64,000 bases of DNA from Bugula neritina (Eukaryota; Animalia; Bryozoa), in assembly GCA_964035545.1 (NCBI GenBank), contig OZ037770.1, positions 4,496,662-4,560,661 of the forward strand. The letters run 5' to 3'. Positions 32,168 through 64,000 of the stretch are shown here, piece after piece. Within the stretch, counting starts at the first letter, position 1. The number at the start of each line of letters is the position of its first letter. The notes beneath the pieces were generated by a model that saw only the letters and a list, made by a program, of their open reading frames with translations, made no database searches and was not told the DNA's origin. Position numbers and translations under genes: made by a program.

Positions 32168-32185
32168 TGGTGGCAGCGGTGGGAT
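32168..32185 (+). promoter_or_regulatory. Primer binding site complementary to a tRNA-Leu 3' end
   Basis: TGGTGGCAGCGGTGGGAT is the reverse complement of ATCCCACCGCTGCCA-CCA, the metazoan tRNA-Leu(AAG/UAG) 3' end. Confidence 0.85.
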
Positions 32186-32197
32186 AGTGCATCCAAG

Positions 32198-33157
32198 ATG
32201 GAGACTGAAAATGCTGAAACTCAACCACCGGCAATCGAAGGTGAGCGTAGAGACAATGCTGTAGAGACAATGCCTGTTAACCATGTAGTAGAGGAACGAA
32301 GGGTTCCGCGAGAACTAGTTGAATACCGCTACAGGTTAAAGGCGCCCACCTTCACGGGTGAAGAGGAGGTGGAACAATTTATCCAAGAGTTTAGCGACGT
32401 AATGGACGTCGCTCAGTGGCCCCCTAGGGTGGCCCTGCTGAAGCTTAGAATGGCATTGATGGACAAAGCCAAGCCCTATGGGCTGGGCGTAGACATTGAT
32501 AATATCTTTGCTTCTCTGCGGGCCCGTTTTGGCCTCTCGACTACAGATGCCAGGGCCCGATTACAGAGGTTGCGGCGTGATCCCCGCACCCCGCTGCGGG
32601 AGCATGCCACCGCGGTCATGAAGCTGGCACAGATCGCGTACAGCGACTTGCCCCCAGTCAACCGCGAGAGGTACACCCTCGACGCTTTCATAGCATCTGT
32701 CGACGATCTGGGTCTCCACCACCAGTTTCTAGCTAGGGGAGTCACCACCGTTGAAGATGCTCTGACTGAGGGGGAAGCTTACCTCCTAGCTAACCAAATG
32801 CATAAAAGTCGCGGAAGCTCCCGCCAAGTGGAGATAGACCGCGCAGACACGGCCGCGGGACAAGGGGAGGAAACCCCCGCCGCGGCTGCCGTGTCCCAGT
32901 TGGCGACGGCATCAAAAGTCACTCAACTGACAGACATGCTAGCCAAGCTGATAGCAACACTGACCCCACAAAACCCAGTGAGTACCGCCCCTGAGCCCAT
33001 GCGGCCATTGGCGCCGCCACAGGGAGAAACAGTCAGTTTTTGCTGGGAGTGCGGAAATCAAGGACATTTCCGCCGATATTGTCCCTTCCTAAATCAGGGG
33101 TTAAACTACCGCGGCCCGCAGATGTTCCCACCTTCCGCGGGCCGACGAAACCTCTAG
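32198..33157 (+). CDS. gag: Gypsy Gag with CCHC knuckle
   Basis: 319-aa ORF right after the PBS; KAPTFTG capsid start; CWECGNQGHFRRYC. Confidence 0.92.
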   Translation: METENAETQPPAIEGERRDNAVETMPVNHVVEERRVPRELVEYRYRLKAPTFTGEEEVEQFIQEFSDVMDVAQWPPRVALLKLRMALMDKAKPYGLGVDIDNIFASLRARFGLSTTDARARLQRLRRDPRTPLREHATAVMKLAQIAYSDLPPVNRERYTLDAFIASVDDLGLHHQFLARGVTTVEDALTEGEAYLLANQMHKSRGSSRQVEIDRADTAAGQGEETPAAAAVSQLATASKVTQLTDMLAKLIATLTPQNPVSTAPEPMRPLAPPQGETVSFCWECGNQGHFRRYCPFLNQGLNYRGPQMFPPSAGRRNL

Positions 33158-36100: not shown

Positions 36101-37668
36101 GACTCCGGTGGTATTGGCCGCAGATGGAGCGTGACGTCCGGCTCAGAGTCAAACAGTGTGAGATCTGCCAGGCCAGTAAGCATAGCCGCCCCCCTGGTGA
36201 AGCAGGACGGCGGAGGCTATATGCTGGTAGGCCCTGGCAAGTAGTCGCTGTAGACCTGGTCGGACCCATGCCCCTGACCCCCAGAGGCAATAATTGGATC
36301 CTAGTACTAACCGACCACTTTACTAGGTGGGCGGATGCTCTGGCTATCCCAGATGCATCAGCCCCAACAGTGGCCAGGGCACTAGACCAACATGTATTCT
36401 GTTATTTTGGGCTTCCCGAACAGATACACTCTGATCAAGGCGCTCAATTCCAGTCTCAACTGATGAGCGACCTTTGCCACCTCTGGGGAGTAAATCAGAG
36501 CAGGACCACCCCCTACCACCCTCAAGGTAACGGGGTGGTGGAGCGCAACAACCGGATGTTAGGTGATGCGCTCCGGAGTCTCCTCCTTGGACGAAGTCAA
36601 GAGGAATGGGATACGGTGTTGCCGCAAGTCATGCGTGCATACCGTAGCACCCCACACACCAGTACTGGTGAGACCCCAAACCTCTTGATGCTCGGGAGAG
36701 AGACTCGTGTCCCTGACCATCTCACCTATCACGTTCCAGAGCAAGATAACTCAGTCCACGAGTATGCCAGTGAACTAGTGGAACGGATGAAGGCCGCACA
36801 CGAGATACTGCGTCAACAGCAGTGGAAGGTGCGGCACGAAGATTCCGATGAACCACCCCTCTATCAAAGAGGAGATAAGGTGTGGATGGTCAATTACCGT
36901 AGGCGCCGCGGACAGGCTGATAAGCTGAAGCCTAAGTTCGTAGGCCCCTACGTGGTCGTCGAGGCTATGCCCAATCATACGTACAAGATTGAGCGCTCAG
37001 GACAGGTGTCTATCCAGAATGAGTCTCGCTTGAAACCGTATTGGGCTAGCCCCGGCGGAGTGGGAGAAGCCCCCCCGTTGTTAGAGCCCAGGAGGCAGAC
37101 AACAACGCGCGGGCGACGGCGGCATGGACCTGAATACGAAGTGGTCATACCGCGGGAAGAAAACTTGGTGAGAGAGGAGCGGCAGCTTCTGGCAACAGAA
37201 GCGTGTCCGCCACCGCCAAGTCTAATTCCATCACTTCCAGAAACCGAGCCGGTTCCGGAAGTGCAAACCCCCACGGAGGGAGGGGCTCCATCCGGAGAAC
37301 AAGAAGAGGTGACTGCTGACGGTGAAGTAGAGACGCCATTAGAGGCCCCTACTAACGAACCGGCAAGCGTGTCACCCCCCCTAGAAAGGGGACAGCGTAC
37401 GAGGCAACCCCCCGCATACTTGAAGGACTTCGTATGTGACTGCGTTAAAAGCGGCACACATGAAAGTCTAGGGGAAAACCGTACGAGAAAAGAATCGAGC
37501 AAATGTGGGAGTTGTCAACACCACGGAAATATCAACTTTTGTATCGGCGGAAGTAGGAACAAAATTCATCCGCCGGGTGCACAAAGTCTTAATCACGCAC
37601 CCCAACCACGTTGCTCGATCTTTTCATACGCTGATGCAGTCAAGAGTAGATGTGTTTCTAAGCAGTAG
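33040..37668 (+). CDS. pol: Gypsy Pol (PR-RT-RNaseH-IN) in the -1 frame relative to gag
   Basis: LIDSG (protease), VYLDD (RT), TDAS (RNase H), H..H..C..C and DLVGP..SDQG..VER (integrase), GPY motif. Uninterrupted ORF. Confidence 0.97.
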   Translation: MLGVRKSRTFPPILSLPKSGVKLPRPADVPTFRGPTKPLGKKKRRSPRRAPRTGNQQWQQPRRTSKGLRPAAAFSMPLHNRFTGLQVQESGWEHTKVAEKPASAPPRPTYHRPKRPPSRPKAREVLPARVRPEGRVQVQPHGNSYFLPGKLEGKAVTFLIDSGCTTNLLSRQLFDTLSARVRGEMEAYEGEYGTLADGSCLPFYGIIELTGRVRDQTIQETFIVSQLKEDAILGMPFLKRHGCHIDFSRSAMMMSGRELACVDKFGCPLVGGVQVVRNRTIPGRSRATIHCRVNSSRISGLGVVEGAHEKIQLASSLNQLTEQGEILVQCVNPFTEPIKLPAGSMLGRFHSVQEGDVGPSLGDATEAPPRHPIQGRGAVPTHLRELYETASGGCASNRERQAMAKLLRDYGDVFSSGEHDVGLTGIVRHEIPLTAGTVPVRQPTRRLGPEKEKEVSRQVRDLLDRGLIEPAHSAWSSPVVLVRKKDGSWRFCVDYRKLNSVTIQDAYPLPRIDESLDALAGSKYFSTLDLLSGYWQVPLSPDAQEKAAFITRDGLWKWKVLPFGLTSAPATFQRLMEQVLSGLHWKTLLVYLDDVIVISPDFETHVSRLQEVFERLRGAGLKLKPSKCALLQPEVKYLGHVVGRNGVATDPEKVRAVEDWVTPQDLTGLRAFLGLVGYYRQYIPDFAGIAQPLNRLTAKGVTWQWTPVEQEAFDRLKGCLLTAPILAYPDPTLEYILDTDASDQNVGAVLSQVQEGREVVVAYYSKSLSPAERNYCTTRKELLAVIKSVKHFRPYLYGRKFRLRTDHASLIWLCRRAEPSSQVARWLEILAEFSYRIEHRPGKRHSNADGLSRRPDGGCKQCLNIERRDGGPPRCELETLAHHGVPFDWDQGQLRQRVDESPEDIQNLRANPVLAGNVRELRKLQEELPGVVADIYRAKREGRRPSEERIRQGCAEFRLYCQRWDSLRIGQDGLLTISLAASGRHPERKRVVCPTAIRRELIWDTHKQAHAGVKRVMSKLRLRWYWPQMERDVRLRVKQCEICQASKHSRPPGEAGRRRLYAGRPWQVVAVDLVGPMPLTPRGNNWILVLTDHFTRWADALAIPDASAPTVARALDQHVFCYFGLPEQIHSDQGAQFQSQLMSDLCHLWGVNQSRTTPYHPQGNGVVERNNRMLGDALRSLLLGRSQEEWDTVLPQVMRAYRSTPHTSTGETPNLLMLGRETRVPDHLTYHVPEQDNSVHEYASELVERMKAAHEILRQQQWKVRHEDSDEPPLYQRGDKVWMVNYRRRRGQADKLKPKFVGPYVVVEAMPNHTYKIERSGQVSIQNESRLKPYWASPGGVGEAPPLLEPRRQTTTRGRRRHGPEYEVVIPREENLVREERQLLATEACPPPPSLIPSLPETEPVPEVQTPTEGGAPSGEQEEVTADGEVETPLEAPTNEPASVSPPLERGQRTRQPPAYLKDFVCDCVKSGTHESLGENRTRKESSKCGSCQHHGNINFCIGGSRNKIHPPGAQSLNHAPQPRCSIFSYADAVKSRCVSKQ

Positions 37669-37692
37669 TTCAAACCATTTCACATATTCAGT

Positions 37693-38769
37693 ATGTCTTA
37701 CGACAACAGATCGTGGGGTGAGTTAACTATATCTTAATACGAAACTAGATTGCATCGCTCAGCTCTGACTCACTGAGTCAATCGAGCTGGAGATAGGTTA
37801 GTGAAATACCGTAGTAAGAACTTAGTTTGACTTAGAGATTTTTATAATCTCATTGCAATACGGTTCTGTCTGACTATTCACTATCATTAATCTCTACGAG
37901 GTAACTGAATTAGGAGTTGCCAAGCTGTTCAAGCTGACAACACAGCAGTGTAATGTACTAACACTGTTGAAACTTTTTCAGATTACACTCGACCCGCTAC
38001 AACCAGGGTACGGGATAGAACACTTCCCGCTCCGTATCCGGAGGACTATGCTAGTGGTGACCGGCCTGAGCCACTACGCCGCCGTTGGCGGTGGGTGTCT
38101 CCACAAACCGAAGAAGAAATAGAAACAGCCTGGGGGTCCAGAGGACGGACGAGATGCCAGATCTGTGGTGAAGATTGCGCCTCTCACCGCTCCCTTAAAC
38201 TACACGTCAATGCCCATCTCCTACTGACCTTCTGCCCCTGCGGGTACAATGATGTGTATCCTTACCCCGTCACCAGACACAGAGCGGCGGGCTGTTTCCC
38301 TGGAGAAAACTATGTGGTCGACGCTAAGCTGTACCCGGAGTTCCTCACATATATACGACCCCTGGTAAAGAAGGCCATGCTACTAGCCGTTCTATCCTCG
38401 GGGTTCCAAAGTGTGTTAGACAACGCCCGCCAACAATCCCCGTTGGTGTCTGACCGCCCTCCAATTACCTACACCCCCGAGGAAACTACATATCCAGAAG
38501 AAGGAGAGATCTCCCCTACCCCGGCGAAGAGACGGACCAGGTCCCCCAATCCACCATTACGCCGCAGACGGACACCGTCCCCAGACCCAGTACGACTAGC
38601 TACAGTAGAAGAACGCCTCCTACGATTACAAGAAGAGTTCACCCAGCTGGCGCCAGATCTACTCAACACTACCACAGGACTCTTCCAGCTGAAGGGATCC
38701 GTATGCCGTATGAAACGGAAACTGCGTACATGCCAAGCCAAGCACCGGCGTGCCCAACAAGGACTCTAG
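37693..38769 (+). CDS. Gypsy accessory ORF3: zinc-finger-like plus coiled-coil protein, predicted two exons (37693-37717 and 37982-38769), 270 aa
   Basis: ATG 37693, donor GTGAGT 37718, branch TACTAAC 37956-37962, acceptor TTTTTCAG ending 37981; splicing keeps frame. CQIC..HVNAH..FCPCG..RH...C motif. Homolog at 55714-56547. Confidence 0.72.
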
Positions 38770-40599
38770 TATGCTACCCAGAATACTCCACATTTGGTGA
38801 AGAACCAAACTCGTGTAAATGCTTAACTGCTAGACAGGTTATTCCTTGTCTAATACCACAGCTAGCTAGTATTCCTCGTCTATCTACAGCTGGCCAATTG
38901 TATGCAACGGATCGTTATAACGACTCTGTGTATTATTATGTCTCTTCCTGTATATTATGTATTATTTTTGTCCACTGATGTATGCAATTACTACTGAATG
39001 TTTTTTTTATATATGTATCAGAAAGATGGCTTTCTGCTGGTGGGGGCGGTGTGGTGGTTCGTGGAACTACCAGCAGCACAACATGTAGGGTCGCGTAATT
39101 GACCCGGAACAATGGATAGCCAATTAGCGTAGTTGATAGTTAGCAGCAATTGTAGTTTCCCGCTGCTAAGTCAGTCGAAGCTAGAGTGTGAAATAGATTA
39201 GATGTGTAACTTGTTGGAAATAATGTATCGTGTTTTTATAATGTATAATTGTGTATAAAATATACTCGTTCACTCGACTTAGCCTGGTGCAGTTCTATAC
39301 TAGATAAATAGACTCTCTGGATAGCATATCAACCCTAATCTGAAAATTATAACAATATCAAACTGCTACTCGGAGCTCACTACAACCCTCCCACCGAATC
39401 ACTACACTTGTTGGCAAACATCCCACCAGTAAACCTTGTATACACCAAAGAAAGATTGCAATTAATCAGAGGATTGGTAAAAACTGATAACGTATCCATG
39501 CTCTCGGACACACCTCGAAGCGCAATTACCCTAAAGTTCATATCAGACATAAAGAAACTGGTCCACCGGACAACTAAATTAACAGATCTACAACCAGTAG
39601 ATCTTACAAGGCACAAGATCACCAACTGCATACAAAATGAATAGACACGCCAATGGAATGCACAGCTCGCAACTGGGATATGCCCATATGGCATACTCTC
39701 TGTTCTGGAACCGGAACATTTGTTCCACAAACCACTACCATTGAACAACAGGAGAAAAGATGTTGGGGCATTATGTGATCTTCTCACTGGTCACAGCAGG
39801 CTCCTTTCTTTCCAATACAGGATAAATCTTACATACACCCCAGTATGTACTTGTTTAATAGAAGAAGAAACAGCGTATCACTACATGTACTTGTGTGCAG
39901 ACTATGATGTCGCCAGAGCTCATACTAGCCCCTCCACGGATAACTGGGAATCAGTCATTTCATTCTTGAACCTCACTAGAAGACTGATGTTCTAATTACC
40001 CAGAACAGATGACAACCAAGGCCAGGCTATAACACTCATACACTCAATATAGTACTCAATACAATCTTTATTTTCAAGCATCATATTGTATTTATATAAT
40101 AATATTATATGTACCTTATAATATTAAAAAAAAACAAAAACAAAAAAAACTGTTATACAAATATACTGTAGATTGTATTTTTTTATACATTCGAAAATAT
40201 TAACTTTCATCTTTGCCTGCAAATAGAGGTATTTTCTTTTTTTCTTGTATTATTTTATCAATAAAGAGTTCATCATCAATATATTATTGATTATTGGCGC
40301 AGATAGATGAAAACAATGAAAGCTGTATTTAGCCGCGAGAAGAAAACTCTACAGTGAAAATAATAGATAGCGCATCGTTTCTAACCAACGTGAGTATTTG
40401 CTTTTCTTTGCCGTTTCCGACTTACTTCCTAGCTGACCAAGAGTCACGAAATTCCCAACTCGTTAATTTTTAATCCACCATTCCCTGTTATGGTAGTTTC
40501 ATTTATTTTTTCTTGTTTTCAAATTGCTGTAATAAAATAATTAGGTGCATAAGTGTGAATTATGATCATCTCTACATTGGCACGTAATCGTTTTGATTA

Positions 40600-42589: not shown

Positions 42590-42800
42590 TCTGCATGGTC
42601 TAGGCCCTAGGGGTTAGAGCAGTTGTCTATAGTAAACACAAATTCTGGGGTGGGAGTTTAATAAACGCCATTGGTGATGTTAGAAAGAGCATCCAGTCAT
42701 AATTGCTCCTGTGCCCACCTAAATAGGTCTTTAACCCAATCTAACAAAAGCCCTTCCATCAGGGTTTTCCCCAAAGATGATGACTATAAACTTGTGGTAG
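42590..42800 (+). mobile_element. tRNA-derived SINE, copy 2
   Basis: Shares CCATTGGTGATGTTAG.AAGAGCATCCAGTCATAATTGCTCCTGTGCC...GACTATAAACTTG with 16436-16646. Confidence 0.75.
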
Positions 42801-43071
42801 TTTTTCTATATGACTATGGCTATGCCATAGTCATAATGATATGCTATACTAGTTGGCTCATCCATTACTTGTTTTGACTGCCTTTGTTTTTATGGTTTGC
42901 TTCTCACAGAGATAAATATTCTTTTTATAGATGACTGTATGTGTTTGAGTGTAAGAAAAAATGTCGAATCTGCTGGTTCAGCCTCCAACTGATGGATCTC
43001 TGGGTATGTGTATTTAAACTATTTATTCATGCGCAACTCCTGACTTGGCGGATTGTCACTGTAAATAGTTG

Positions 43072-43958
43072 GCACTAATATTCTACCTTACACTAATAGT
43101 CTACCTTACACTAATACTCTACCTTACACTAATAGTCTACCTTACACTAATACTCTACCTTACACTAATGGTCTACCTTACACTAATAGTCTACCTTGCA
43201 CTAATGGTCTACCTTACACTAATAGTCTACCTTACACTAATATTCTACCTTACACTAATATTCTACCTTACACTAATAGTCTACCTTACACTAATGTTCT
43301 ACCTTACACTAATAGTCTACCTTACACTAATATTCTACCTTACACTAATATTCTACCTTGCACTAATATTCTACCTTGCACTAATATTCTAGCTTACACT
43401 AATAGTTTACCTTACACTAATATTCTACCTTACACTAACAATCTACCTTACACTAATATTCTACCTTACACTAATATTCTACCTTACACTAATAGTCTAC
43501 CTTACACTAATAGTCTACCTTACACTAATATTCTACCTTACACTAATAGTTTACCTTGCACTAATATTCTACCTTGCACTAATATTCTAGCTTACACTAA
43601 TAGTTTACCTTACACTAATATTCTACCTTACACTAATAGTCTACCTTACACTAATATTCTACCTTACAATAATAGTCTACCTTACACTAATATTCTACCT
43701 TACACTAATATTCTACCTTACACTAATATTCTACCTTACACTAATATTCTACCTTGCACTAATAGTCTACCTTACACTAATAGTCTACCTTACACTAATA
43801 GTCTACCTTACACTAATATTCTACCTTACACTAATATTCTACCTTACACTAATATTCTACCTTACACTAATATTCTACCTTACACTAATAGTCTAGCTTA
43901 CACTAATAGTCTAGCTTACACTAATAGTCTATCTTACACTAATATTCTACCTTGCACT
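43072..43958. repeat. 18-bp minisatellite, about 49 copies
   Basis: Unit CTACCTTACACTAATA(TT/GT) in direct tandem, no spacers. Confidence 0.97.
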
Positions 43959-45313: not shown

Positions 45314-48300
45314 ATGGCAACAGCTGGTGAGTGAATTTAAATACTCTTTTATTCACTTATTTCTTGGAAAATAGAAATATATAAACTCTGAAGATATGTT
45401 GATGTTGTGCCACCAGAATTTAATATAAATCTATAAAACTATTTTATTATCATGCACTACTCTCTATAGCACTGTTTTATGTCACCAATTAGCGTATTGC
45501 TTTGAGAATAGTAGAATAGATAATATTATGCAAGCAGTTGGGTTAGAGTTGTGTTATCTCAACACAATAAACACTGAACTATAAACTATACATTAAATGA
45601 TTATTTAGAAAGAATATAAAGCTATCCAATAAAATAAATATTAGTCATTGTTATGATTACTGAAATCTACCATATAATAAATTTATTCAAGCAGTAGATA
45701 TGACAGGTGTCACAGCGACATACATCACCTGCTAGCACTGTGTAATAATCACACTGTCACTGCATGATGTTACAGAGAAGATGAGAATCTGGTTCAGACA
45801 TTCTGGACAGCCACCTGTAAGCTGGTCAGATGTAAGGAGAGCTGATACCAAGTTATATACTACTGCTGAGGTGAAACGTGAAGTTGGGAGTTATTACATC
45901 ACAGATCTCAAGCTGAGAGGGAAAATTCCAAGTAACATTGGAGAGATTGCAGGTAAAGCCCTGTGTCTACATGTTTCTAACCTGACTGACAGAGCAAGTC
46001 TAGACAAGTGAGTGTCTATTAAAATAGCTGTGTAAATGTTAAACAAGTTCATTTATTAAATAATGATAATACTGCTATTTATGATGATGGATAAAATATA
46101 ATGGATAATATAATATAAAATATACCTGATTGAATACACCACTATAGTATACAGAGTACATACTACTATTTGTGTTATTTATTAAATAATAATGGATAAT
46201 AGACACTGAAGCTGAAGCATATTTTTGCTCATAATATATTCATACAGTATAATATAAATCAACATAGTAATATGTGCAACATTGTATGTAATCCAAATGA
46301 GCTTATAAAACTGCCTCTACTGCTACTTCATAATATATGCTGAATCTAAGCATGCTTTTGCTCATAATATATGCATACAACATAATATACATCAACATAG
46401 TAATATGTGCAACAATGTATGTAATTCAACTAAGCTTATAGTTGTATAGAAACTAGGAAGTGCAAAACTGCCTCTACTCGATATCACTGACTAAATCATG
46501 TTTTATGTATATATAGCTAAAAATATGAGTAATGCACAGTCTATAATATATTATACAAAAGACTATGTTATGCCCGCAACTGCAACTGCAAATGTTATTC
46601 AATATATTAATTTACAGAGCATTGTAGAGTGAGGCCTTGTGTACTATAAACTGACAGCTAAGCTTGCTAAATGAAGCTTCCTCTTCTCACCTACAACATA
46701 ATATTATAAGTGAAACTTTTTGTGTTTTTGTGTTAACAATAAGTGCGTTTCTTGCATATTTTACTTAGTTAAATACACAAGTAGCATGATATAATAGTAT
46801 ATATTATTTTGATATGGTAGACATAAATACATGACACACTTTATATTACAGTCTATGTAAGCTGACTCAGTTAGAGAAACTAGACATAGGATGGAATCAT
46901 CTCGACATAGTACCAGAATTTGTGTCATCACTCACATCAATTAAAGAGTTGAATATGGAAAACTGTAAATTATCTACTCTACCTGAGAGGTTTGTGGAAC
47001 ACAGTCCTTTTTGTTTCAAACACTAAATAATTCACATGTTGATATAATGCGTACCAAGTATTGCTAATTAGTATGTCACTATGTGTTGAAAAGCATAAAG
47101 CTATAAATTACGTACTTCTTGAGGCTATACGATATTAGAGTTTTTGAAAACTTGAAAATAAATATGTTTCAGTTATCTGGCATTACATTTCCTATTGCTA
47201 TAAAACCTTTTTAACAAATATTATAACACCCAATTGTAGTTTACTATAGTGTGTATTTCTCATCAAATGGTTGTTACTTTGAATATGCCTTAGCGTAATA
47301 AATTTGCTACTTGGATATTTTACCTGATGGAATATGCAGTGCATGCTATGATACAGTAGACTAAATATATCACATACTTTATATTACAGCCTTATTAAGC
47401 GGACTCAGTTAGAAAAACTATACATAGGATTGAATCCTCTCTACACAGTACCAGAAGTTGTGTCATCACTCACTTCACTGAAAGAGTTGAATATGTGGGA
47501 ATGTAATTTATCTACTCTACCTGAGAGGTTTGTGTGCCACAACAAATTTTATATATCACTTTTAACATTCAATAATTGTTATTCTGAAGCAGAATTTCAA
47601 CACAGTAAATACTACATTGAGATGTTTATACTTTTTCTCTGCAAAAACTACATATGAATCTCACAGTTTCTGGGGATATTGTCAATTAGCACACTGTCTA
47701 GAAGTTTCCTCTGCTTCACAAGTTCTTTTATAGTGTTTCTATATCTTTTTGAATATTTCCCATGATAGGTTGACTGGGCTGTTTTTCAGTAATCGCTTTA
47801 ATAACTCTTTTCATTATAATATAACTATAGCTACTTCTGTACACATAATTGGTATATATTATATTATTATAGTAACACAGCTTCTTATTATTGTTTAATT
47901 TGAATACACAAGTGCTATATACAGTATTTATATAATATTATCCTGGTACAGTGAATTACATATATTACACACTTTATATTACAGTCTGTGTCAGCTGACT
48001 CAGCTAGAGAAACTTGAGCTAGCAAGAAATTCTCTCCACACAGTACCAGAAGTTGTGTCATCACTCACAGCACTCAAAGAGTTGAATATGGGGAGCTGTA
48101 AATTATCTACTCTACCTGAGAGGTTTGTGGAACACAGTCTTTCTTGTTTCAAACACTCAATAATTCACATGTTGATATAATGCTTACCAAGTATTGCTAA
48201 TTAGTATGTCACTATGTATTGTTGAAAAGCATAAAGCTATAAATTACATATTTCTTGAGGCTATATGATATTAGAGTTTCTCAAAACTTGAAAATAAATA

Positions 48301-51300
48301 TGTTTCAGTTATCTGGCATTACATTTCCTATTACTATGAAACCTTCTCCAATAAATACTATAGCACTCGCTTGTAGTTTACTAGAATCTAGTTCACATTA
48401 AATGCTTATTAGGTTTCGGTATTTCACTTTGAATTTGCTTTGTTGCAATAAATATGTTTCTTGGATATTTTACTTGATTGAATACACAAGTAGTATATAC
48501 TATTACCATGATACAGTGGATTAAACACGTAACGCACTTTATATTACAGCCTGTGTAAGCTGACTCAGTTAGAGAAACTGGACATAGGATGGAATCCTCT
48601 CAACACAGTACCAGAAGTTGTGTCATCGCTCACATCACTTAAAGAGTTGTATATGGGGAACTGTAAATTGTCTACTCTACCTGAGAGGTTTGTGGAGCAC
48701 AGTCTTTCTTGTTTCAAACACTCAAAAATTCACATGTTGTTATAATGCTTACCAAGTATTGCTAATTAGTATGTCACTATGTATTGTTGAAAAGCACAAA
48801 GCTATAAATTACATATTTCTTGAGGCTATATTGAATTAGAGTTTCTCATTACTTGAAAATAAATATGTTTCAGTTATCTGTCATTACATTTCCTATCGCT
48901 ATAAAACTTTTTTAACAAATATTATAGCATCCACTTGTAGTTTACTATAGTGTGTATTTCTCATTAAATGGTTATTAGAGCCTTCTGTACTTTACTATGA
49001 ATATGCCTTAGCGTAATAAATTTGCTATTTGGATATTTTACTTGATTGAATATGCAGTGTTTGTTATGATACAATAAATTAAATATATCACATACTTCTT
49101 ATTACAGCCTGAGCCAGCTGACTCAGTTAGAGAAACTGTACATAGCAGTGAATCCTCTCAACACATTACCAGAAGTTGTGTCATCACTCACATCACTTAA
49201 AGAGTTGAATATGATAGGCTGTGAATTATCTACTCTACCTGAGAGGTTTGTGTGTCACTACAAATTTTATATCATTTTTAACGTTCAATAATTGTTATTT
49301 TGTAGGAGAATTTCAGCACAGTAAATACTACATTAAGATGTTTATACTTTTTCTCTGCAAACCCCCATACGAATCTTAACGTTTCAGAGGATATTGTCAA
49401 TTAGCACACTATCAGTTGTATAGTTGATTATTATTCACACACTGAGTATATATAATAATTGAATACTTGTATGCTATTATAATAAACTGTTAACTTCTCA
49501 TGCTCTGCATGTAATATGCTACAATAAGTTGCTTGGTTGTTAAATTGTATATAGTTTTACCTGGTTGAAAACAAAATGTGAATACAGTATAAAGTTTTAT
49601 GGTAATGCAGACTACATATATATGTGAATATAGTGAATATAGTGAATATAGTATAAAATATTATAGTAATGCAGACCACATATATATCATACACTTTATA
49701 TTACAGCCTGTGTCAGCTGACTCAGTTAGAGAAACTAGACATAGGATGGAATCCTCTCAACACAGTACCAGAAGTTGTGTCATCACTCACATCACTTAAA
49801 GAGTTGAATATGAGGAGCTGTAAATTATCTACTCTACCTGGGAGGTTGGTATTGCACAATATTATCTCTGTTTCAAACATTCAATATTTCACTTCTTTAA
49901 TGCTTATCAAGTAGTGTTATGCTATTTTATTATATATTGCCAACGTATGTTAAAAAACCTATAGATATGCATTTTCGAACTTGTCCAATAGTTTGTGCTA
50001 AGGTGGAAATAATACAGCCTCATGGTATGCTATTGTATATCCTTATATCACAAGAACCTTTTGTAATGAATAATAAAACAGCCATCCGCAGTGTACTGGC
50101 AATCATGGTAATAATCGAATCTTTCTTAGCTTCTTGCGTCAATCACTTTGACTATCCATTACTGCAATGAATTTTTTTCTGAACTTTTTACCTGACTGAC
50201 TGTGCTTAGCAATATAACATGTACAGTGTATATTATTATGACACAGTAGACTACATATATCATACCCTTTATAATTATTGCAGTCTATGCCAGCTGACTC
50301 AGTTAGAGAAACTAAACTTAAGAGGAAATCCTCTCAACACAATACCAGAAGTTGTGTCATCGCTCACATCACTTAAGGAGTTGGATATAAAGAGCTGTAG
50401 ATTATCTACTCTACCTAAGAGGTTTGTGGAACACAGTCTTTCTTGTTTCAAACATTCAATAATTCACATGTTGATATAATGCTTACCAAGTATTGCTAAT
50501 TAGTATGTCACTATGTATAGTTGAAAAGCATAAAGCTATAAATTACAATTTTCTTGAGGCTATATTGTATTTGAGTTTCTCAAAACTTGAAAATAAATAT
50601 GTTTCAGTTTTCTGGCATTACATTTCCTATTGCCATAAAAAGTTCTTCAACAAATACTATAGCACCGCTTGTACTTTACTAGAATCTATTTCAGATTAAA
50701 TGTCTTTTACTTTAAATATGCCTTGTCAAAATAAATTTTTTTTGCATGTTATACCATATTGAATACACCACTGTAGTATACACAGTACATAATACTATCC
50801 TGATACAGTGGATTGCATATATTATGCACTTTATATTACAGTCTATGTCAGCTGACTCAGTTAGAGAAACTAAACATGAGAGATAATCCTCTCAACACAG
50901 TACCAGAAGTTGTGTTATCACTCACCTCACTTAAAGAGTTGTATATGTGGAACTGTGGTTTATCTACTCTACCTCAGAGGTTTGTGTGTTACAATAATTA
51001 TTTCTTTTGTTTTAAACATTCTATATTTCACTTCTTTAATGCTTCTCAAGTAGTGTTATGCTATGATATCATATATTGCCAACGTATGTTGAAAAACATA
51101 AACATGTATTTTTTTAACTTATCTAGTTGTTTGTCCTAATATAGAAATAATACAATTTTATAGTGAGCCATTGTATATCCTTATATCACAATACTTTTTG
51201 TAATCAAAAATAAAGCAGCCCTCTGCAGTTTACTGACAATCATGGTAATAATCGAATCTTTCTTAGCTTCTTGCGTCAAGCACTTTGACTATCCATTACC

Positions 51301-54300
51301 GGAATGAATTTTTTTTCTGCATTTCTTACTTGGCTGACTGTGCTTAGCAATATAATATGTACAGTGTATATTATTATGACACAGGAGACTACATATATCA
51401 TACCCTTTATAATTATTGCAGTCTATGCCAGCTGACTCAGTTAGAGAAACTAAACTTAAGAGGAAATCCTCTCAACACAGTACCAGAAGTTGTGTCATCA
51501 CTCTCATCACTTAAGGAGTTGGATATAAAGAGCTGTGAATTATCTACTCTACCTGAGAGGTTTGTGGAACACAGTCTTTCTTGTTTCAAACATTCAATAA
51601 TTCACATGTTGATATAATGCTTACCAAGTATTGGGAATTAGTATGTCACTATGTATAGTTGAAAAGCATAAAGCTATAAATTACAATTTTCTTGAGGCTA
51701 TATTGTATTTGAGTTCCTCAAAACTTGAAAATAAATATGTTTCAGTTTTCTGGCATTACATTTCCTATTGCCATAAAAAGTTCTTCAACAAATACTATAG
51801 CACCGCTTGTACTTTACTAGAATCTATTTCAGATTAAATGTCTTTTACTTTAAATATGCCTTGTCAAAATAAATTTTTTTTGCATGTTATACCATATTGA
51901 ATACACCACTGTAGTATACACAGTACATAATATTATCCTGATACAGTGGATTGCATATATTATGCACTTTATATTACAGTCTATGTCAGTTGACTCAGTT
52001 AGAGAAACTATACATAGGAGATAATCCTCTCGACACAGTACCAGAAGTTGTGTTATCACTCACCTCACTTAAAGAGTTGTATATGTGGAACTGTGGTTTA
52101 TCTACTCTACCTCAGAGGTTTGTGTGTTACAATAATTATTTCTTTTGTTTTAAACATTCTATATTTCACTTCTTTAATGCTTATCAAGTAGTGTTATGCT
52201 ATGATATCATATATTGCCAACGTATGTTGAAAAACATAAACATGTATTTTTTTAACTTATCTAGTTGTTTGTCCTAATGTAGAAATAATACAATTTTATA
52301 GTGAGCCATTGTATATCCTTATATCACAATACTTTTTGTAATCAAAAATAAAGCAGCCCTCTGCAGTTTACTGACAATCATGGTAATAATCGAATCTTTC
52401 TTAGCTTCTTGCGTCAAGCACTTTGACTATCCATTACCGGAATGAATTTCTTTTCTGCATTTTTTACCTTGTTGACTGTGCTTAGCAATATAATATGTAC
52501 AGTGTATATTATTATGACACAGGAGACTACATATATCATACCCTTTATAATTATTGCAGTCTATGCCAGCTGACTCAGTTAGAGAAACTACACATAGAAG
52601 GAAATCCTCTCAACACAGTACCAGAAGTTGTGACATCACTCACATCGCTTAAAGAGTTGGATATAAAGAGCTGTGAATTATCTACTCTACCTGAGAGGTT
52701 TGTGGAACACAGTCTTTTTTTTTAGTTTCAAATGTTCAATAATTCACATTTTGATATAATGCTTACCAAGTATTGGGAATTAGTATGTCACTATGTATTG
52801 TTGAAAAGCATAAAGTTATAAATTACATATTTCTTGAGGCTATATTGAATTAGAGTTTCTCATTACTTGAAAATAAATATGTTTCAGTTATCTGTCATTA
52901 CATTTCCTATCGCTATAAAACTTTTTTAACAAATATTATAGCATCCACTTGTAGTTTACTATAGTGTGTATTTCTCATTAAATGGTTATTAGAGCCTTCT
53001 GTACTTTACTATGGATATGCCTTAGCGTAATAAATTTGCTATTTGGATATTTTACTTGATTGAATATGCAGTGTTTGTTATGATACAATAAATTAAATAT
53101 ATCACATACTTCTTATTACAGCCTGAGCCAGCTGACTAAGTTAGAGAAACTATACATAGGAGGGAATCCTCTCAACACAGTACCAGAAGTTGTGTCATCA
53201 CTCACATCACTTAAAGAGTTGAATATGGAGAGCTGTGAAATATCTACTCTACCTGAGAGGTTTGTGTGTCACAACAAGTTTTATATATCACTTTTAACAT
53301 TCAATAATTGTTATTTTGAAGCAGAATTTCAACACAGTAAATACTACATTAAGATGTTTATACTTTTTCTCTGCAAAAACTACATATGAATCTCACCGTT
53401 TCTGAGGATATTGTCAATTAGCACACTATCTAGAAATTTCCTCTGCTTCACAAGTTATTTTATAGTATTTCTATTTCTTTTTGAATATCTCCCATGATAG
53501 GTTGACTGGGCTGTTTTTCAGAAGTCGTTTTAATAACTATTTTTATTATATTATAATTATAGCTACTTCTGTACACATAATTAGCATATATATTACATTA
53601 TTATAGTATCACAGTTTCTTTTTACTGTCTAATTGAATGCACAAGTGCTATATACAGTATCTACATAATAATATCCTGATACAGTGAATTACATATATTA
53701 TGCACTTTATATTACAGTCTATGTAAGCTGACTCAGTTAGAGAAACTAGACATAAGAGGAAATCCTCTCTACACAGTACCAGAAGTTGTGTCATCACTTA
53801 CATCACTTAAGGAGTTAAATATGGAAAACTGTAAAATATCTACTCTACCTGAGAGGTTTGTGAAACACAGTCTTTCTTGTTTCAAACACTCAATAATTCA
53901 CATGTTTTTATAATGCTTACCAAGTATTGTTAATTAGTTTGACAATATGTAGTGTTGAAAAGCATAAAGCTATAAATTACAATTTTCTTGAGGCTATATG
54001 ATATTAGAGTTTCTGAACACTTGAAAATAAATATGTTTCAGTTATTAGGCATTACATTTCCTATTGCTCTATAACCTTCTTTAAATAATCCTATAACACC
54101 TACTTGTGGTTTACTAGAATCTATTCCCCATTACATGCTTATTAGCTTTCGGTAGTTTACTTTGAATTTGTTTTGTTGCAATAAATTTGTTTCTTGAATA
54201 TTTTTCCTGATTGAATACACAAGTATGGTATAATATACAGTATATAATAATATCCTGATACAGTGGATTACATATATTATGCACTTTATATTACAGTCTA

Positions 54301-57300
54301 TGTCAGCTGACTGAGTTAGAGAAACTATACATAGGATCGAATCCTCTCAAAACAGTACCAGAAGTTGTGTCATCACTCACTTCACTTGAAGAGTTGGATA
54401 TGGGGAGATGTGAATTATCTAATCTACCTGAGAGGTTTGTGTGTCACTACAAATTGTACATCATTTTTAACGGTCAATAATTATTATTTTGTAGCAGAAT
54501 TTCAGCACAGTAAATACTACATCAAGATGTTTATACTTTTTCTCTGCAAACCTCCATATGAATCTCACCTTTACAGAGGATATTGTCAATTAGCACACTA
54601 TCTAGAAGATTCCCGACGTCACAAATAAGTTTATAGTATTCCAATATCTTTTTTGAAATGCTTCCCATGAGAGGTTGACTAGGCTTTTCTTAAGAAATTG
54701 TTTTATCAACCCTTTTCATTATATTATAATGATTGTTACTTCTGTACCCATAATTGGTATATATTGTAGTAATTTTAGTAATTACTAGTTTTGTGGGCTT
54801 CTAGCGAGCAATATCTTTATATTATCTTCCAATAATATCACGGCTTGTAACAGGAATGAATGATTTATTAATACGCAGTAAAAGTAGTAGCGAAACGATA
54901 CATCCAGTATCAAGGGTAAAAATATACATTTATCTTACACTAACTAGCTATCACACTCTGAGTATGGCTGCTATCTACATCCGGCGCCCTCCGCGCATCG
55001 CTGGGGGTCTCATGTGACGGATATCGGATTGGCTGGGGAGCACGTGGGATAACATACTACACTCCCCACTACACTGCCCCCCACCCCAGCAGGAAGCCCA
55101 CCTTCCTGATAATACCAAAATAAAAAAATAAAATAACAACAAAAAAACAATAAGATATCTGCATCACAAGATCAAAATTTATACTTAGGCCAACGGTTTA
55201 TTAAAAAAAAACATCTGGTTAAAATATAAAAATTAGGCACTATAAAACTAAGAGATTGTATCTGTACCAAGAGCTTTTTGTACGGCACCGAGAGATATGA
55301 TGTGTAGAGAGACGGTAAGTGAGGCACCACCTGCGGCGTAGATCAGGAGGACAGCTGGAAAGAGTTAGGGACAGGGAAATAGAGAGGGGAAAGAGAACGT
55401 CATCTACGACACTGGGGTTGTCACAAAGACGGGTGTCGGGGCAATGTGGAAGGTAGACACTCAGTCTTTATCATCTCTCTTGAGCTGGGCCACAGAGTCC
55501 CGGAGAGCCTTGAGTTCAGAAGCGGCGGCTGATATTCTAGACGCCAACCTCTCTCTCTCTAGTTCATGCATCCGTTGCTCCATCTCTCTTAGATTTCTAG
55601 CAACAGAGGAGTGGCGTTTGGGGATGAAGACTGCCATCGCCACTTACGAGAGGGTCGAGGGGAGACAGGTGAGGACGGGCATCATCTCTGGGGGACTTCT
55701 ATCCGTTGTAAGACTAGTCGGAGTACGATGTTGGGACGGGGCGCAGTGTGAGCGGGGGTGACGGGCGAGGTACCAGGAGCTTCCTAAGCCCAGGGGGTTT
55801 GGGGCAGGGTTCTTGGGTAATGGCACGGGGAGCGGGAAATTCTTGGCTCAGCCGTTCGTAACGAGCAGGGTCTGAGATGAATGGCTTGATGAGGCCGAGA
55901 AAAGTTGGGAAGGAAAGCTTGTCCACATTGTAGAGATGTCCAACGTGACACTCCATAGTCCTCTGGTGACGAAGGGTGTAGTCCCTGTGGTAGCTGTACT
56001 CCCCACAGGGGCAGAAGGTGGTGATGAAATGTTGATGGATGTGTACTCGGAGGCGGCGAGGTGTGGTGAAATGCTGTTGACACAGCCGGCAGGTGGTGCA
56101 GTTGTCGTTTCCTCTATCTTGTTGAATCATGTTCTCGGTATCCTGGGTAACCCAGCTAGACCGGGTTATGAGTATCTCCGGTAGTGTAGCGGAAGTAGGT
56201 TCCTTCTCCCAAGCCATCTCCAATGGTGGCATATCATCGTAGTTAGAAGAGCGAGTGATATCTGAAAGAGCAGAATTATTGTTAGATCGAATTTGATCTT
56301 TACAGCATAATTCTGATGACAATCGACTGTTACTAGTCTGAGAGTCATGCATATTTTTGTACGGCACTCGAGAGACTGTGTTTGGACGTGTAGACTGACT
56401 GAGAAACATTGTGTCAAGCTCCAGATCTAGTAGATCTCCGGCCATTGTTATGTCCTCGTCGTCTTTCACGTTTAGCCCAGTCTCCAGTAATTGTGATTCA
56501 ACCAGAGTGATTAAATCAGAATTAACTGATGTCAAACCCGTTTCCATAGATAGGAATACTAGGGCTAGGCAGGCTTACTTTGGAACTTGGTATTTGGAAT
56601 CATACTCAACGTTCAAGCTTGGATTTTAGTGGTTTTAGTATGTCTACCTTTGGTGATGTCAGCGTAAGAAAAGACTGGACAGCGTGTTTATTTCGCATGG
56701 CTAGAACTGTTTGCCCCGGGCGCAATAATTCCACCTAATACTCCGCCCTCGCAAAAGTTGATATTTTCGCGGTGTTCACAACTTCCTTCGTTTCGCTACC
56801 AGTTTCTCAGTACCGCACCCAGCTTGGCCTTCATGTCTGCCGCTTGTAACGCAGTCGCATACGAAGTCCCAAATATACTAGGGGTTGCCTAGTACGTTGT
56901 CCACTTTCCAAGGGAAGTGGTGTACTAATTGGGGGAGATGGTGTAGTCACTGCTCGTGGCGGTGTACTCACTGATGGACTGTTATGTTCCATCGGTGGCG
57001 TTTCCGGCCTACTATTGACTGCTGTATTATTTTCAAGATTTCCGGATACAGCCCTCCCCCGGGGGGTTTTGCACTTCCGGAGCTGAAACAGGTTCCGGAA
57101 GTGGTGGCGTTAGACTTGGCGCTGAGGGTGGTGGGCGCACTTCTGGTAACGGAAGTTGTCTTTCCTGCCTCACCAAGTCTTCTGCCCGCGGCATGACCAC
57201 TTCATACTCTGGTTCATGTCGTCGCCGCTAGCGCGTTGCTGTCTGCCTCCTGGGCTCTAACAACCGGGGGGGGGAAGGGGAAGTTCTCCAGCCGCACCTG

Positions 57301-60300: not shown

Positions 60301-63300
60301 TCAGTCAGCCGGTTAAGACTACTGGCGAGTTGGAATCTTGCGTGCGCGCCTTCGACAACTCCCAACCCAGAGATCTGGCTACTGTTCACTCTACAGTAAA
60401 TGGTAGCCCGGGTACGGCCTGGTATTGTACAGTTCCGTATTACCTGCACGCCTCCCACTAGGGGACGGCCAGACTTGTTGACACAAGTGAGCTCCTTGCC
60501 GGCCATCAGTATAGCTGACTTGTTAAAGTCAATGCGGCAACCATGTCGCTTCAAGAATGGCATCCCTAGTATAGCATCCTCCTCTAGTTGGCTGATGACG
60601 AAGGTTTCCTGGATGGCCTGGTCGCGGACGCGTCCAGTCAGCTCTATAATACCGTAGAATGGGATACGCGACCCGTCTGCAAGAGTGCCAGGTTCCCCGG
60701 TATAGGGAGCTAATTCTCTCCTCTCCTTAGGGGGAAGAGCGTCAAAGACCCGACGGCTGAGGAGATTCGTGGTACACCCGGAGTCTAACAGGAAAGTGAC
60801 AGACCTGCCGGCCACCTTCCTGGTAAGAAATAGCTATCTCCATGTGGTTGTACCCTTACTCCCCCAGCGTGCTCGGTCTCGACCTGGTGGGGCAGTGCCC
60901 GTTTCGCCCGCGGTTTTCGGGGCCTCTTAGGGCGAGGTTTTCTCCGCGGAGGGGCGATTGGTTCCCCTCCGATGTCCGGATGGACCTTGCCAGCCGGCTC
61001 CATCTCTGGTAGCCAGCTGAAGCGGTTAGCGAGAGGCAGTGTGAATGGTTCCAGTCGCCGCTCTGGTCGACTGGTCCAACGGGGTGCCTGCCACTCGTGG
61101 GGGGTATACCGCGCTGTCCCTACGAACGCCCTGCGGTATCCACCTCGTGGTTCCTTCATTCTCGGCCTGCGGGGTTTGGAGGCGTCCGCGAGCCGTGGAA
61201 GTTTAATCGTTTCCCAGATTGCGGGCAACTCGAGCGGAGATTTCCTCGTGTGCCGCATCTTCAACATAAAGCAGCTGGCCTCAGAACCTCTACCCTCGGC
61301 CTCAAAGGTCCTTGGGTGGGTTCTGTTTGGGTTGGCACAGGCTAGGATCGCCACCAACTGTTCTAACATGGCTATCATGCGGTCCACCTCCGCTTCAAGA
61401 GGAAGGGTGGTGGTGGCGGCAGCCACTTGGACTGGATGGTCCGGTCCCGAAGTGATTTGTTGGGAGCTCACTTTAGCTCGATAGAATTGTTTGGCCAAGA
61501 TATAGGCCTCACCTTCATGCAGTGCATCCTCTATCGTAGTCACCCCTCTTGCATGAAGCTGGTGGTGTAAACCCAAATCATTGAGGAACTGTACAAAGGC
61601 GTCATAGGTGTAGTGTTCCCGGTGTGGTTCTGGCAAGTTGCTGTATGCGATCTGTGCCAGTCTCTTCACTAGGGTAGCATGATCCTGTAGTGGTGTGCGC
61701 ACTTCTTAGTGCAACCTTTGTGAACGGGCCCTGGCGTCCACAGCGGAGATGCCGAAACGGGCCCGCAGCGCAGCAAAGATCCCGTTTACACTGGATCCCA
61801 GTCCGTACGACTTGGCTTGTTTCGTCAGCGCCGTCCGTAGTTGAATCAGGGCTACTCGTGGTGGCCATCGAGTGATGGCCATGACTTCGTTGAATTCTCG
61901 AATAAATTGTTCAACATCTTCTAGGCCCGTAACATACTACACTTCCCACTACAACATTATATATTTTTATAGTAACACAGTTTCTTATTATTGTCTAATA
62001 AGTAAGAAAACTACTTTCTTATATTTATAATGACATCACATTGCAACATAATTGACTCAATCAACCGTATTGTGTAAAGCTCATTAGTAAAAAATCACTT
62101 AGTAGATTATATAGTATGTTTGATTTAGGTAATTCAAGTTCTACTTTTAATTATTTTGAAATAAAAGATCTGGTTTTATATTGTAAACCGAAGAGGACAA
62201 AAAAATTATTAAATATTGCAACTTTTTTTTTCATGCTCTCCTTTGGTTATCTATCTCCAATTCTCAGTGTAATAGAAGCCAATTTTTATCTTATTCCTGT
62301 TCTCAAACAGCCTGTTAATATATTGTTTCATAATTAATTTACAATTCTAAATTACGAATCAACTGGCCTTTAAAGGTGCAACATGTTCCTGCAAGCCGAT
62401 GACTTTCCAGAATTGTATTCTCTCATAGTGAAATAATTCACAACTTCTATTTCCTGTCTAGAAACTATAATACATTTATTAGGGTAATTAGTGAGAGGTT
62501 GTGGCAGAAGTATTTTATTTTACTTGAAATTACTTTAATGCTTTGCGTAGATGTTTCAGAGCTGTACTGTGTTTCTATTTTATGATAAATTGCATGTATT
62601 ATGGCACATAAAACAATATTCCTTATAATGATAACATCCATATAGTAGAATATCAGTGTGAACAGTTACTCAGTGATCAGAAGTGTCAGAAGTATTTTAT
62701 TTTCACTTCACATTACTTTAATGCCTTATGCAGATGCCACAGAGCTGTAGCCTACCATGTTCCTATTTGCTGATAACTGTATTATGGCACATTATACTAG
62801 GAATTTTCTACTCTGTGGTATAAAATACCATTCTTTCTAGTAGAATAACAGTGTGAACAGTTACTCAGTTATCTGCCATATAGAAAAAGATGATATATAG
62901 TATTACATGTAGGTTGTTGTCTTTTATGACAGTACTTAGTACAGATGTAGCACTTTTCTTACCAAATATATACTTACAATTATACTGTTACATTATATAT
63001 CTTTATAAAATACTTAAAATGTTATGCATCGTATATAATATGATACTCGTACATAATCGTAACTTAGACATATTTGTTTTCTTTCCTTAATTAATGTACT
63101 AATTCAAGGTATTGTATATAAACTTGCTATAGTAACTGCAACTTAGTACTATATTATGTGTAATTATTGTTATACTAATATTGGGTATCTTTATGAAAAC
63201 TATTATATCAATTACCTGTATAGCTAGGTCTAATAATAGAAATATTATATATTATTAGAATACAGAAATTAAAGAAGTTACAGAAACTCACAATTTCAGA

Positions 63301-64000
63301 GAATAAATTCACCAGTCTCCCATCTTCAGTGTGTGCATTGAGTAATCTGTACACACTGGATATATCCGAGAACAGATCCATGACATCCTTGAACCCGGAG
63401 ATACTACAGCTAACACATCTTGGGTCTTTCCATACATATGGATGTGATGCTCTTAAATCTCCTCCACTAGAAGTCTGTAAAAGAGGACTGGATGCTGTGC
63501 GACAATACTACACAGACTTGGTTAAAGGCGCTGGTAGAAATCTTCCATTTGCGACAATAGTCATGCTGGGGAACACCATGGCAGGAAAAACCAGTCTAAT
63601 CAGAACATTACAGAGCACTGACAAGAAGAGAGTTCTGACTGACAGAAGTCCTAATGCAGAGTATGATGAAACTACAAAAGTGTTTATGGTGGAAGAGGTG
63701 GAAGTAAATGGTACAACTCTTCGTTTCATAGATATGGGAGGCCAGGAGGTCTACCATATCACATACCATTTAACACTGAGACAAAATTGCGTACCAGTAA
63801 TTGTAGTCAACATGGAGCAGTATGATAAGATTTCAAATGAGTCTACAGACAGAGAGGCTGTGAGAAAGTTGGCTTTTGACTTCATGTCTCACCTCTATCT
63901 CACTCATCCAACTCTTGGTCCGCCTACCCTTGTCTTCACACACAAAGATAAGTTTTCGAGTGAAATTTTCCAACAGCTTCGAAAAAAGTTTCTTGAAGTG
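45314..64000 (+). CDS. LRR-Roc (ROCO-family, MFHAS1/MASL1-like architecture) GTPase; continues beyond the window
   Basis: Start gccATGg at 45314. Exons 45314-45326, 45776-46007, fourteen 138-nt LRR exons (46852-54434) and 63259-64000+, all phase-compatible. The last exon has about 3 LRRs, the [18 protein letters not shown] hinge, P-loop GNTMAGKT (63569-63592), DMGGQEVY and THKD. Candidate 5'UTR exons end at 40389 and 43003. COR domain is expected downstream but not seen. Confidence 0.92.
46852..54434 (+). repeat. Tandem array of 14 exon+intron units (about 540-600 bp), each exon encoding two 23-aa LRRs
   Basis: Exons: 46852-46989, 47390-47527, 47985-48122, 48550-48687, 49108-49245, 49707-49844, 50284-50421, 50842-50979, 51422-51559, 51980-52117, 52560-52697, 53122-53259, 53718-53855, 54297-54434. 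Consensus [45 protein letters not shown]; all open. Confidence 0.96.
54765..61953 (-). mobile_element. Decayed Gypsy element, antisense in the last LRR intron of the ROCO gene
   Basis: 3' LTR 54765-55073 (TGTAGT...ACTACA), PPT from 55074. Fragmented gag/pol highly similar to the intact element. Only about 24 bp of the 5' LTR remain (61930-61953). Flanks ATAT and ACAT; host intron sequence resumes after 61953. Confidence 0.93.
55461..56547 (-). pseudogene. Accessory ORF3 homolog of the decayed Gypsy (zinc-finger-like plus frameshifted coiled coil)
   Basis: [20 protein letters not shown]....C..Y.VD...P.FL..I.P aligns with 38095-38769. Coiled-coil piece at 55461-55643. Confidence 0.75.
62500..62870. 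repeat. Diverged tandem duplication, about 180-bp unit x2, intronic
   Basis: CAGAAGTATTTTATTTT..ATTACTTTAATGC..CAGAGCTGTA..TAGTAGAATA.CAGTGTGAACAGTTACTCAGT occurs twice. Confidence 0.7.

Follow-up and report, generated by a model that had tools for sequence, protein, structure and literature searches.

How can neighbouring copies of one exon come to differ more than the introns beside them? The question is raised by a gene of the bryozoan Bugula neritina, which lies in a stretch of 64,000 nucleotides (nt) of contig OZ037770.1 (GenBank assembly GCA_964035545.1, positions 4,496,662 to 4,560,661, forward strand), referred to here as the window and used for all coordinates. The gene is a Roco gene with leucine-rich repeats (LRRs), a Roc GTPase domain and a COR domain (LRR-Roc-COR), and 14 of its exons, each 138 nt long and encoding two LRRs, form a tandem array at 46852..54434 (+), all in phase 2 at both ends. 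A preliminary description, made from the letters alone, had noted almost identical introns among the youngest duplicates together with substitutions in binding-face codons, and had offered strong positive selection, micro gene conversion between cassettes or targeted mutagenesis of a few codons as causes. The likely answer from the analysis reported here is that ordinary processes, unequal exchange and the copying of patches, supplied the variants and diversifying selection sifted them, in what is likely an immune-type Roco family. For the newest part of the array, a germ-line unequal crossover, short patch copying and selection at predicted concave-face codons are together the probable history.

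The cassette array and its young copies

The coding parts of the gene that fall within the window are as follows:

45314..45326, + strand: exon A, coding part (start codon, four codons and one base, GT donor; read from the sequence)
45776..46007, + strand: exon B, N-terminal, an open frame of 76 codons ending in phase 2
46852, 47390, 47985, 48550, 49108, 49707 and 50284, + strand: starts of exons 1-7, each 138 nt between AG and GT, open
50842, 51422, 51980, 52560, 53122, 53718 and 54297, + strand: starts of exons 8-14, each 138 nt between AG and GT, open
63259..64000, + strand: start of a large exon that encodes more LRRs and the Roc GTPase, joined in frame from exon 14 and still open where the window ends

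Every cassette exon codes for two LRRs of 23 residues (in exon 8, Pfam LRR_4 and LRR_1 score above cut-off), and the array introns measure 400-461 nt. A conserved 23-nt cassette motif has 14 matches in the window and 0 in 100 shuffles; all 14 lie in + strand coding exons, thus no inverted or non-coding spare LRR cassettes are present within the window. Exon B matched no Pfam family; its second half is LRR-like in a degenerate form and is likely a cap, and a protein search with this exon gave 13 matches, two of them close relatives at 83% and 76%; an atlas search with it yielded just bacterial clusters, which were taken as uninformative. Splice joints of run X8 depart from its end at 46007, and the GT..AG joint 45325>45775 was seen in three contigs of run X8 only, these contigs being family members. 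The Roc domain (63260-64000) was matched by Pfam Roc at 33.9 bits against a cut-off of 27, and its translation retains intact what we take to be the P-loop, DxxG and THxD-like motifs; by its sequence the gene is a Roco gene, encoding a predicted GTPase.

The youngest part of the array is present in two overlapping copies:

50172..51579, + strand: young tract copy 1 (intron 6 end, exon 7, intron 7, exon 8, intron 8, exon 9)
51310..52717, + strand: young tract copy 2 (intron 8 end, exon 9, intron 9, exon 10, intron 10, exon 11)

The copies are offset by 1138 nt and differ at 37 positions over 1408 nt. Introns 7 and 9 differ at 4/420 nt, the number that had been estimated by eye, and introns 8 and 10 at 7/442 nt, five of them inside 23 nt. 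Among the exons, 7 and 9 differ at 6/138 nt, 9 and 11 at 8/138, and 8 and 10 at 5/138, of which four are non-synonymous and three lie in 50873-50879, just as described before. Of these 19 exon differences 15 are non-synonymous, and 10 fall outside the face and loop codons, a set fixed beforehand from the LRR consensus LxxLxLxxN/CxL. Per site, the exons (19/414) exceed the two complete introns (11/862, Fisher p 0.0004), as they do all non-coding sequence when the tract flanks are included (18/994, p 0.004). Divergence at face and loop codons is higher than in the introns (9/126 vs 11/862 per site, p 0.0003), the opposite of what would have refuted the preliminary description, and that at framework exon sites tends to be higher too (10/288, p 0.02).

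The differences within the tract are strongly clustered, with 17 adjacent pairs lying within 6 nt where 5.3 are expected (0/20000 shuffles reach this number), and the introns alone are also clustered (4 close pairs vs 0.74 expected, p 0.002). The places in which recombination and clustering can be read are the following:

51312..51334, + strand: cluster of five intron differences (intron 8 vs 10) in 23 nt
51422..51559, + strand: exon 9, a mosaic of exons 7 and 11, likely the unequal-crossover junction
51634..51635, + strand: intron 9, two adjacent bases changed as in intron 11 (52776-52777) and in no other intron, at odds with the remainder of intron 9, which follows intron 7
50873..50879, + strand: exon 8 codons 11-13 cluster, a combination found in no other window exon
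51997..52020, + strand: exon 10 stretch identical to exon 12 over 24 nt (23 nt with exon 14, 15 nt with exon 2)
52591..52598, + strand: exon 11 codons 11-13, with four differences from exons 7 and 9
52698..53121, + strand: intron 11, a chimera; compared with intron 4, 10 mismatches fall in its first 80 nt and 3 in the 344 that follow

Exon 9 agrees with exon 7 at seven of the 12 sites where exons 7 and 11 differ and with exon 11 at the other five, and has one private base. Unit 9 has derived bases in common with unit 11 upstream of the exon (-89 and -37) and in the intron (+75/+76), whereas in the exon (positions 32-94) and at +98 of the intron its derived bases are those of unit 7. As unit 9 is a mosaic of 7 and 11, exons 9 and 11 are not a young pair. 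The change between them that had been quoted earlier is real (four differences in nine bases), but does not belong to a youngest pair; similarly, the exons of the proposed 1138-bp two-exon repeat do stand where they had been placed, though the one at 52560 falls short of being a clean duplicate of young age. Five of the six differences between exons 7 and 9 match exon 11 and may be old too. The cluster in exon 11 would go back either to an older divergence of paralogues or to a patch that came from some other copy in the family.

The array has been reshuffled by recombination, as seen from the tandem duplication, the mosaic unit 9 and the chimeric intron 11. An alignment of the introns contains further mosaics besides intron 11, about half of the informative site pairs in the 14 exons are incompatible with one tree, and over 91 pairs the divergence of the introns does not predict the synonymous divergence of the exons (Spearman -0.03). 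Exons 2/12 and 3/13 differ at 20 nt in spite of related flanks (7-12% divergent), and exons 4/6 at only 8 nt in spite of unrelated ones. The 24 nt that exon 10 has in common with exon 12 contain all three of its clustered differences from exon 8 (codons 11-13), and the five-difference cluster at 51312..51334 means that patch-like change occurs in introns too.

A separate observation concerns exons 5 (49108-49245) and 12 (53122-53259), another junction-type pair: the introns preceding them differ at 3 of the last 344 nt, and the exons at 10/138, with six of the differences in face codons.

The simplest history that can be proposed for these copies, and a likely one, is that a single germ-line unequal crossover between misaligned units 7 and 11 yielded the segment that begins with exon 9 and closes with intron 10, and that repair around the junction was patchy or conversion followed there later. 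Short patches would also have been copied among cassettes from templates, in an order of events that can only be suggested, and selection would have favoured new residues at codons predicted to line the concave binding face. The excess of differences in young-pair exons over introns would then arise because tracts end in exons, because many family donors pair there and because selection keeps the variants.

Selection on the predicted binding face

Diversifying selection at six codons of the predicted concave face or adjacent loop is well supported by the array and the family together, the face positions being assigned from the LRR consensus and not from a folded array model. In the codon test of M1a against M2a over the 14 exons (45 codons), for which our own implementation was used, M2a gave 2dlnL 33.3 over M1a, with 18% of codons at omega 5.5. 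Codons 11, 13, 14, 18, 36 and 37 had posteriors above 0.9, and all belong to the face and loop set fixed beforehand; when a star tree was used instead, codons 11, 14, 18, 36, 37 and 39 were returned. In 42 null simulations without positive selection, 28 of which had independent trees for every 9 or 3 codons and hence free exchange between blocks, the maximum was 13.4, compared to 36.7 observed in the same pipeline.

The same codons vary across the family. A set of outside family exons was drawn from 22 proteins, from which two unrelated LRR proteins and one with an insertion were removed; in the resulting 19 exon peptides, the strand-face codons have an amino-acid diversity of 0.59, and the other exposed codons one of 0.19 (p 0.001). 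Seven outside exons with the same upstream intron type differ at 49% in their face codons vs 21% in 24 intron read-through codons, a comparison made over 21 non-independent pairs. Among contigs of four runs placed on exon 6 (40 of 81 rows), 22/26 variable positions fall in face or loop codons, which make up 34/91 of the sites. The rare states of exon 11 (codon 11 first base, codon 13 second base) recur in all four runs, and donors therefore likely exist in the family; 470 contigs of run X1 alone map onto one exon, indicating a large pool of near-identical cassettes. The positive selection suggested by the preliminary description is thus upheld, with the whole array and the family as its support and not the young pairs.

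Competing explanations

Several results weigh against the reading of unequal exchange, patch copying and selection given above. Apart from the codon test being our own, plain counting gives a face pN of 0.25 vs a pS of 0.15, with overlapping intervals and a bootstrap P of 0.06-0.09 (framework pN is 0.07). In the young pairs, face and loop codons do not clearly exceed the framework (9/126 vs 10/288, p 0.086; p 0.21 for strand positions alone). Exon 8 vs 10 is the only exon pair inside the tract on both sides, and for it the exon excess has p 0.057. Clustering also makes the sites interdependent, and if each cluster is scored as one event, the exon excess has p 0.04-0.26. Formal gene-conversion tests, a check that had been proposed from the start, were not significant on the 14 exons: PHI-like tests gave p 0.25-0.96, and a GENECONV-like test gave only 1/91 pairs below 0.05. 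Within the window there is no donor for the exon-8 or exon-11 clusters, and exon pS (0.14, interval 0.08-0.22) is not clearly below the intron divergence of 0.20, leaving homogenisation of the exons unsupported.

The young-pair contrast between exons and introns is hence weaker than it appears, and borderline when counted as events. With only pairs 7/9 and 8/10 included, exons have 11/276 and introns 11/862 differences (p 0.007 per site, 0.033 per event). Two of the early suggestions hold in part: substitutions are denser per site in binding-face codons than in introns, but not clearly denser than in framework, and the codon 12 changes (M/I, L/I) sit at a buried core position rather than on the face; micro gene conversion has on its side the clustering, the chimeric unit 9 and the 24-nt identity of exons 10 and 12, but not the formal tests.

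The first alternative is that the copies are plain duplicates which accumulated point mutations, with strong selection fixing face mutations quickly and with no templated exchange. Omega above 1 at face codons, the preponderance of non-synonymous changes in the young exons, the non-significant recombination tests and the clusters that find no donor in the window would all agree with this. Clusters are found in introns too, however, more than half of the young exon differences lie outside face and loop codons, and exon 9 has but one private base; recombination is needed to explain both the conflict among derived bases near unit 9 and the chimera in intron 11. Point mutation with selection is accordingly considered improbable as the full account.

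The second is that the young-pair exon excess reflects small-sample chance with a junction effect, or a partly collapsed or mixed assembly, so that only the older, family-level selection is real. The interior-pair and event-level p values lend themselves to it, as do single X1 contigs over the young introns with depths of 577 and 517 vs 172-195 in unique flanks, a depth of about three copies where the window has two. On the other hand, all counting schemes point in the same direction, the changes preserve the frame and use codon states found across the family, and the X1 contigs equal the window introns with zero differences over 232 and 155 nt. We regard chance or misassembly as a decidedly improbable source of the pattern. 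About threefold X1 depth relative to unique flanks was recorded at 51718-51949, 52174-52328 and 48935-49123, where there may be an extra copy in the sample or a collapse here; summed depth was not taken as a copy number.

Programmed or targeted diversification would act by somatic conversion or hypermutation on the face codons, for which lamprey variable lymphocyte receptors (VLRs) and diversity-generating retroelements provide models. The large pool of near-identical cassettes would suit such a process, as would the occurrence of all four bases at the first positions of codons 11 and 18 and the spectrum of changes, mostly A/G in exons (8/11) and mostly C/T in introns (6/11). Polar codons rich in purines, together with an intron cluster rich in pyrimidines, could also produce this spectrum. 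Face codons have 35 amino-acid vs 4 silent variants, compared to 23 vs 17 in the framework (p 0.002), and such scarcity of silent variants is a signature of selection on residues and counts against targeted mutagenesis. The second base of codons 11 and 18 and the silent third base of codons 13 and 34 are invariant, as are the neighbouring A-rich codons 9 and 15; the window has no spare or inverted cassettes, and the 25 longest of 45 pairs gave no recurring inverted-repeat signal at exon borders. Targeted mutagenesis, the third of the causes first offered, is therefore very unlikely. A diversity-generating retroelement in particular was dropped as a candidate, as the A-rich codons 9 and 15 do not vary and the reverse transcriptases in the window belong to LINE and Ty3/gypsy elements.

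Least probable of all is cDNA-templated conversion, in which reverse transcripts of abundant family mRNA would overwrite exon patches and spare introns: spliced family exons in run X8, a window LTR (long terminal repeat) element with identical 305-nt LTRs and the tendency of framework sites, too, to exceed introns speak for it, but patches and breakpoints occur in introns as well, all 13 within-array introns are retained, and exchange at the DNA level gives the same pattern in fewer steps.

The Roco family and its wider setting

A search with the Roc-exon frame returned 31 proteins, of which 28 are close relatives at 43-87% identity. The closest full-length paralogue, P0001, is 83% identical over the window part and has a frame of 677 residues without a kinase domain. 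As COR lies past the window end, the presence of COR was tested on this paralogue, whose predicted model (pLDDT 80) has Foldseek matches to LRRK1, LRRK2 and the Chlorobium Roco protein with E values of 6e-22 to 6e-10, among them 5e-19 for 6HLU and 6e-10 for the COR-only entry 3DPT. Pfam COR-A is weak in P0001 (E 0.008, below cut-off); by its predicted model, COR follows directly after Roc in the paralogue.

A profile search gave 46 proteins, in which the only named animal matches are two proteins of another bryozoan, Watersipora subatra (XP_067935480.1 and XP_067935483.1), at 31-32% identity over 99% of P0001. Both contain tandem, near-identical 47-residue two-LRR units in which 14/47 columns vary, mostly around the strands, and XP_067935483.1 (P0072) has LRR-Roc-COR followed by a C-terminal caspase domain at residues 948-1211 (126.8 bits). 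The cassette DNA pattern had 0 matches in metagenome contigs, and the Roc protein had 0 confirmed loci among 589 candidates.

Contigs of run X8 cover the exons and barely the introns, with GT..AG joints that fit the gene model and with joints from exon ends to exon starts; contigs of runs X1, X2 and X4, unlike those of X8, continue from exon into intron. The RNA nature of X8 is deduced from this behaviour, and as X8 shares few sequence words with the window, it indicates spliced tandem-exon transcripts of the family, not of this particular copy. The phase of the exons would allow them to be skipped in frame. X8 does contain joints that skip exons; these may stem from paralogues, which map at 90%, and were not read as alternative splicing.

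The remainder of the window is occupied in part by mobile elements:

31862-39354, + strand: intact LTR retrotransposon of the Ty3/gypsy type, its two 305-nt LTRs identical and its pol frame open over 1557 codons
54765..61953 (approximate, by eye), - strand: decayed Ty3/gypsy-type LTR retrotransposon with broken frames, in the intron after exon 14

The intact element sits inside a LINE (27355-39995); the decayed one is 78% identical to it over 3877 nt and has one LTR apparently cut to about 24 nt. The intact element also contains an extra 271-codon frame (37954-38769) that matched nothing in Pfam; the decayed element has its counterpart. At 24628-24962 (+) the beginning of the LRR-Roc exon has a decayed paralogue, with 75% identity to 63235-63559, with stops and frame breaks, and without a cassette array upstream within the window. 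A minisatellite at 43073-43958, 1.3 kb upstream of the Roco start, consists of 49 copies of an 18-nt unit and is open for 299 codons in one frame. Two copies of a 200-nt element in opposite orientation (16431-16631 and 42607-42805) are 77% alike and likely represent a small interspersed repeat, and at about 130-270 and 715-840 (+) there are, by eye, exon-like stretches of another gene with GT donors.

Of known systems, the closest in organization are the ROCO genes of the brown algae Ectocarpus and Saccharina. In these genes, one LRR is encoded per 72-nt phase-2 exon, young duplicates recombine, four concave-face sites are under selection and splice variants occur (PMC3341825, PMC11378527); somatic recombination is described as unreported in PMC11378527. 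The Bugula gene resembles them in its LRR-Roc-COR layout, its equal-length phase-2 tandem LRR exons, recombination of young duplicates within the array and concave-face selection. Mapped from the printed consensus, algal sites 17, 19 and 20 of the 24-residue unit would correspond to codons 11/34, 13/36 and 14/37 here, while algal site 15 (codons 9/32) is invariant in this gene and variable in the family. The differences from the algal genes are the animal host, two LRRs per 138-nt exon rather than one per 72 nt, and the lack of inverted or intronic spare exons in this window. With the nearest named matches being bryozoan, a likeness to the algal cassettes by convergence is taken as a working inference.

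In the NWD genes of the fungus Podospora anserina, which include het-d and het-e, WD40 repeats are exchanged and four codons are under selection (PMC1805685). The likeness lies in near-identical units exchanged within and between members of a large family that supplies the repeats, in an N- or C-terminal NTPase switch and in positive selection on a few codons of the interaction surface. Unlike in Podospora, the units here are LRRs with Roc-COR and not WD40 with NACHT, and each unit is an exon with its own intron; allorecognition is demonstrated for the het genes, whereas here such a role is a candidate only. The Watersipora proteins, named 'MFHAS1 homolog' by automatic annotation, are alike in having tandem two-LRR units that vary at matching strand positions, and differ in their 47-residue unit and in the caspase C-terminus of one of them. 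With LRRK1, LRRK2 and the Roco protein of Chlorobium tepidum (6HLU, 3DPU, 3DPT) the family would share the LRR-Roc-COR fold, judging from the predicted model, along with a Roc sequence match; it differs from the solved Rocos in its 13-16% identity and in the paralogue frame being without a kinase domain. The solved Roco proteins are not known as hypervariable cassette families. In lampreys, somatic assembly of non-coding cassettes produces the VLR, a receptor that is either surface-bound or secreted; VLRs are similar in having LRR cassettes that are hypervariable at the concave face and dissimilar in that the cassettes here are coding exons of a predicted cytosolic GTPase. Roc-COR also occurs in TIR proteins of Aplysia, as stated in PMC9334734. 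An animal family of exon-cassette LRR-Rocos was not found in the full-text literature, most subscription journals lying outside its coverage, and the passages of PMC8195603 that were covered make no mention of one; the family seems undescribed in animals.

As for function, the predicted face would bind foreign ligands and ligand binding would switch the GTPase, making the protein a possible cytosolic immune or self/non-self sensor. A farther-reaching picture, which we consider unlikely, is of a large bryozoan family of cytosolic LRR-Roco sensors, some of them caspase-linked, with exchange of two-LRR cassettes frequent enough to give every colony a recognition repertoire of its own. The exchange could take place per generation, or within the clonal colony by mitotic conversion or exon skipping, and the family might then be an animal counterpart of the fungal het repeats and a candidate for colony allorecognition or symbiont discrimination.

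The combination of cassettes, exchange, binding-face selection and a Roc-COR switch is known from brown algae, where somatic diversification has been proposed and never shown. The young duplicates of the Bugula gene let single exchange events be read, and are by themselves no proof of an exotic mutagenic process. If this is an independent animal case, its two-LRR cassettes, many paralogues and caspase-bearing relative would suggest Roco proteins as a third class of variable intracellular animal sensors beside NLRs and RLRs, and the array would provide a concrete locus for studying recognition diversity in a colonial invertebrate.

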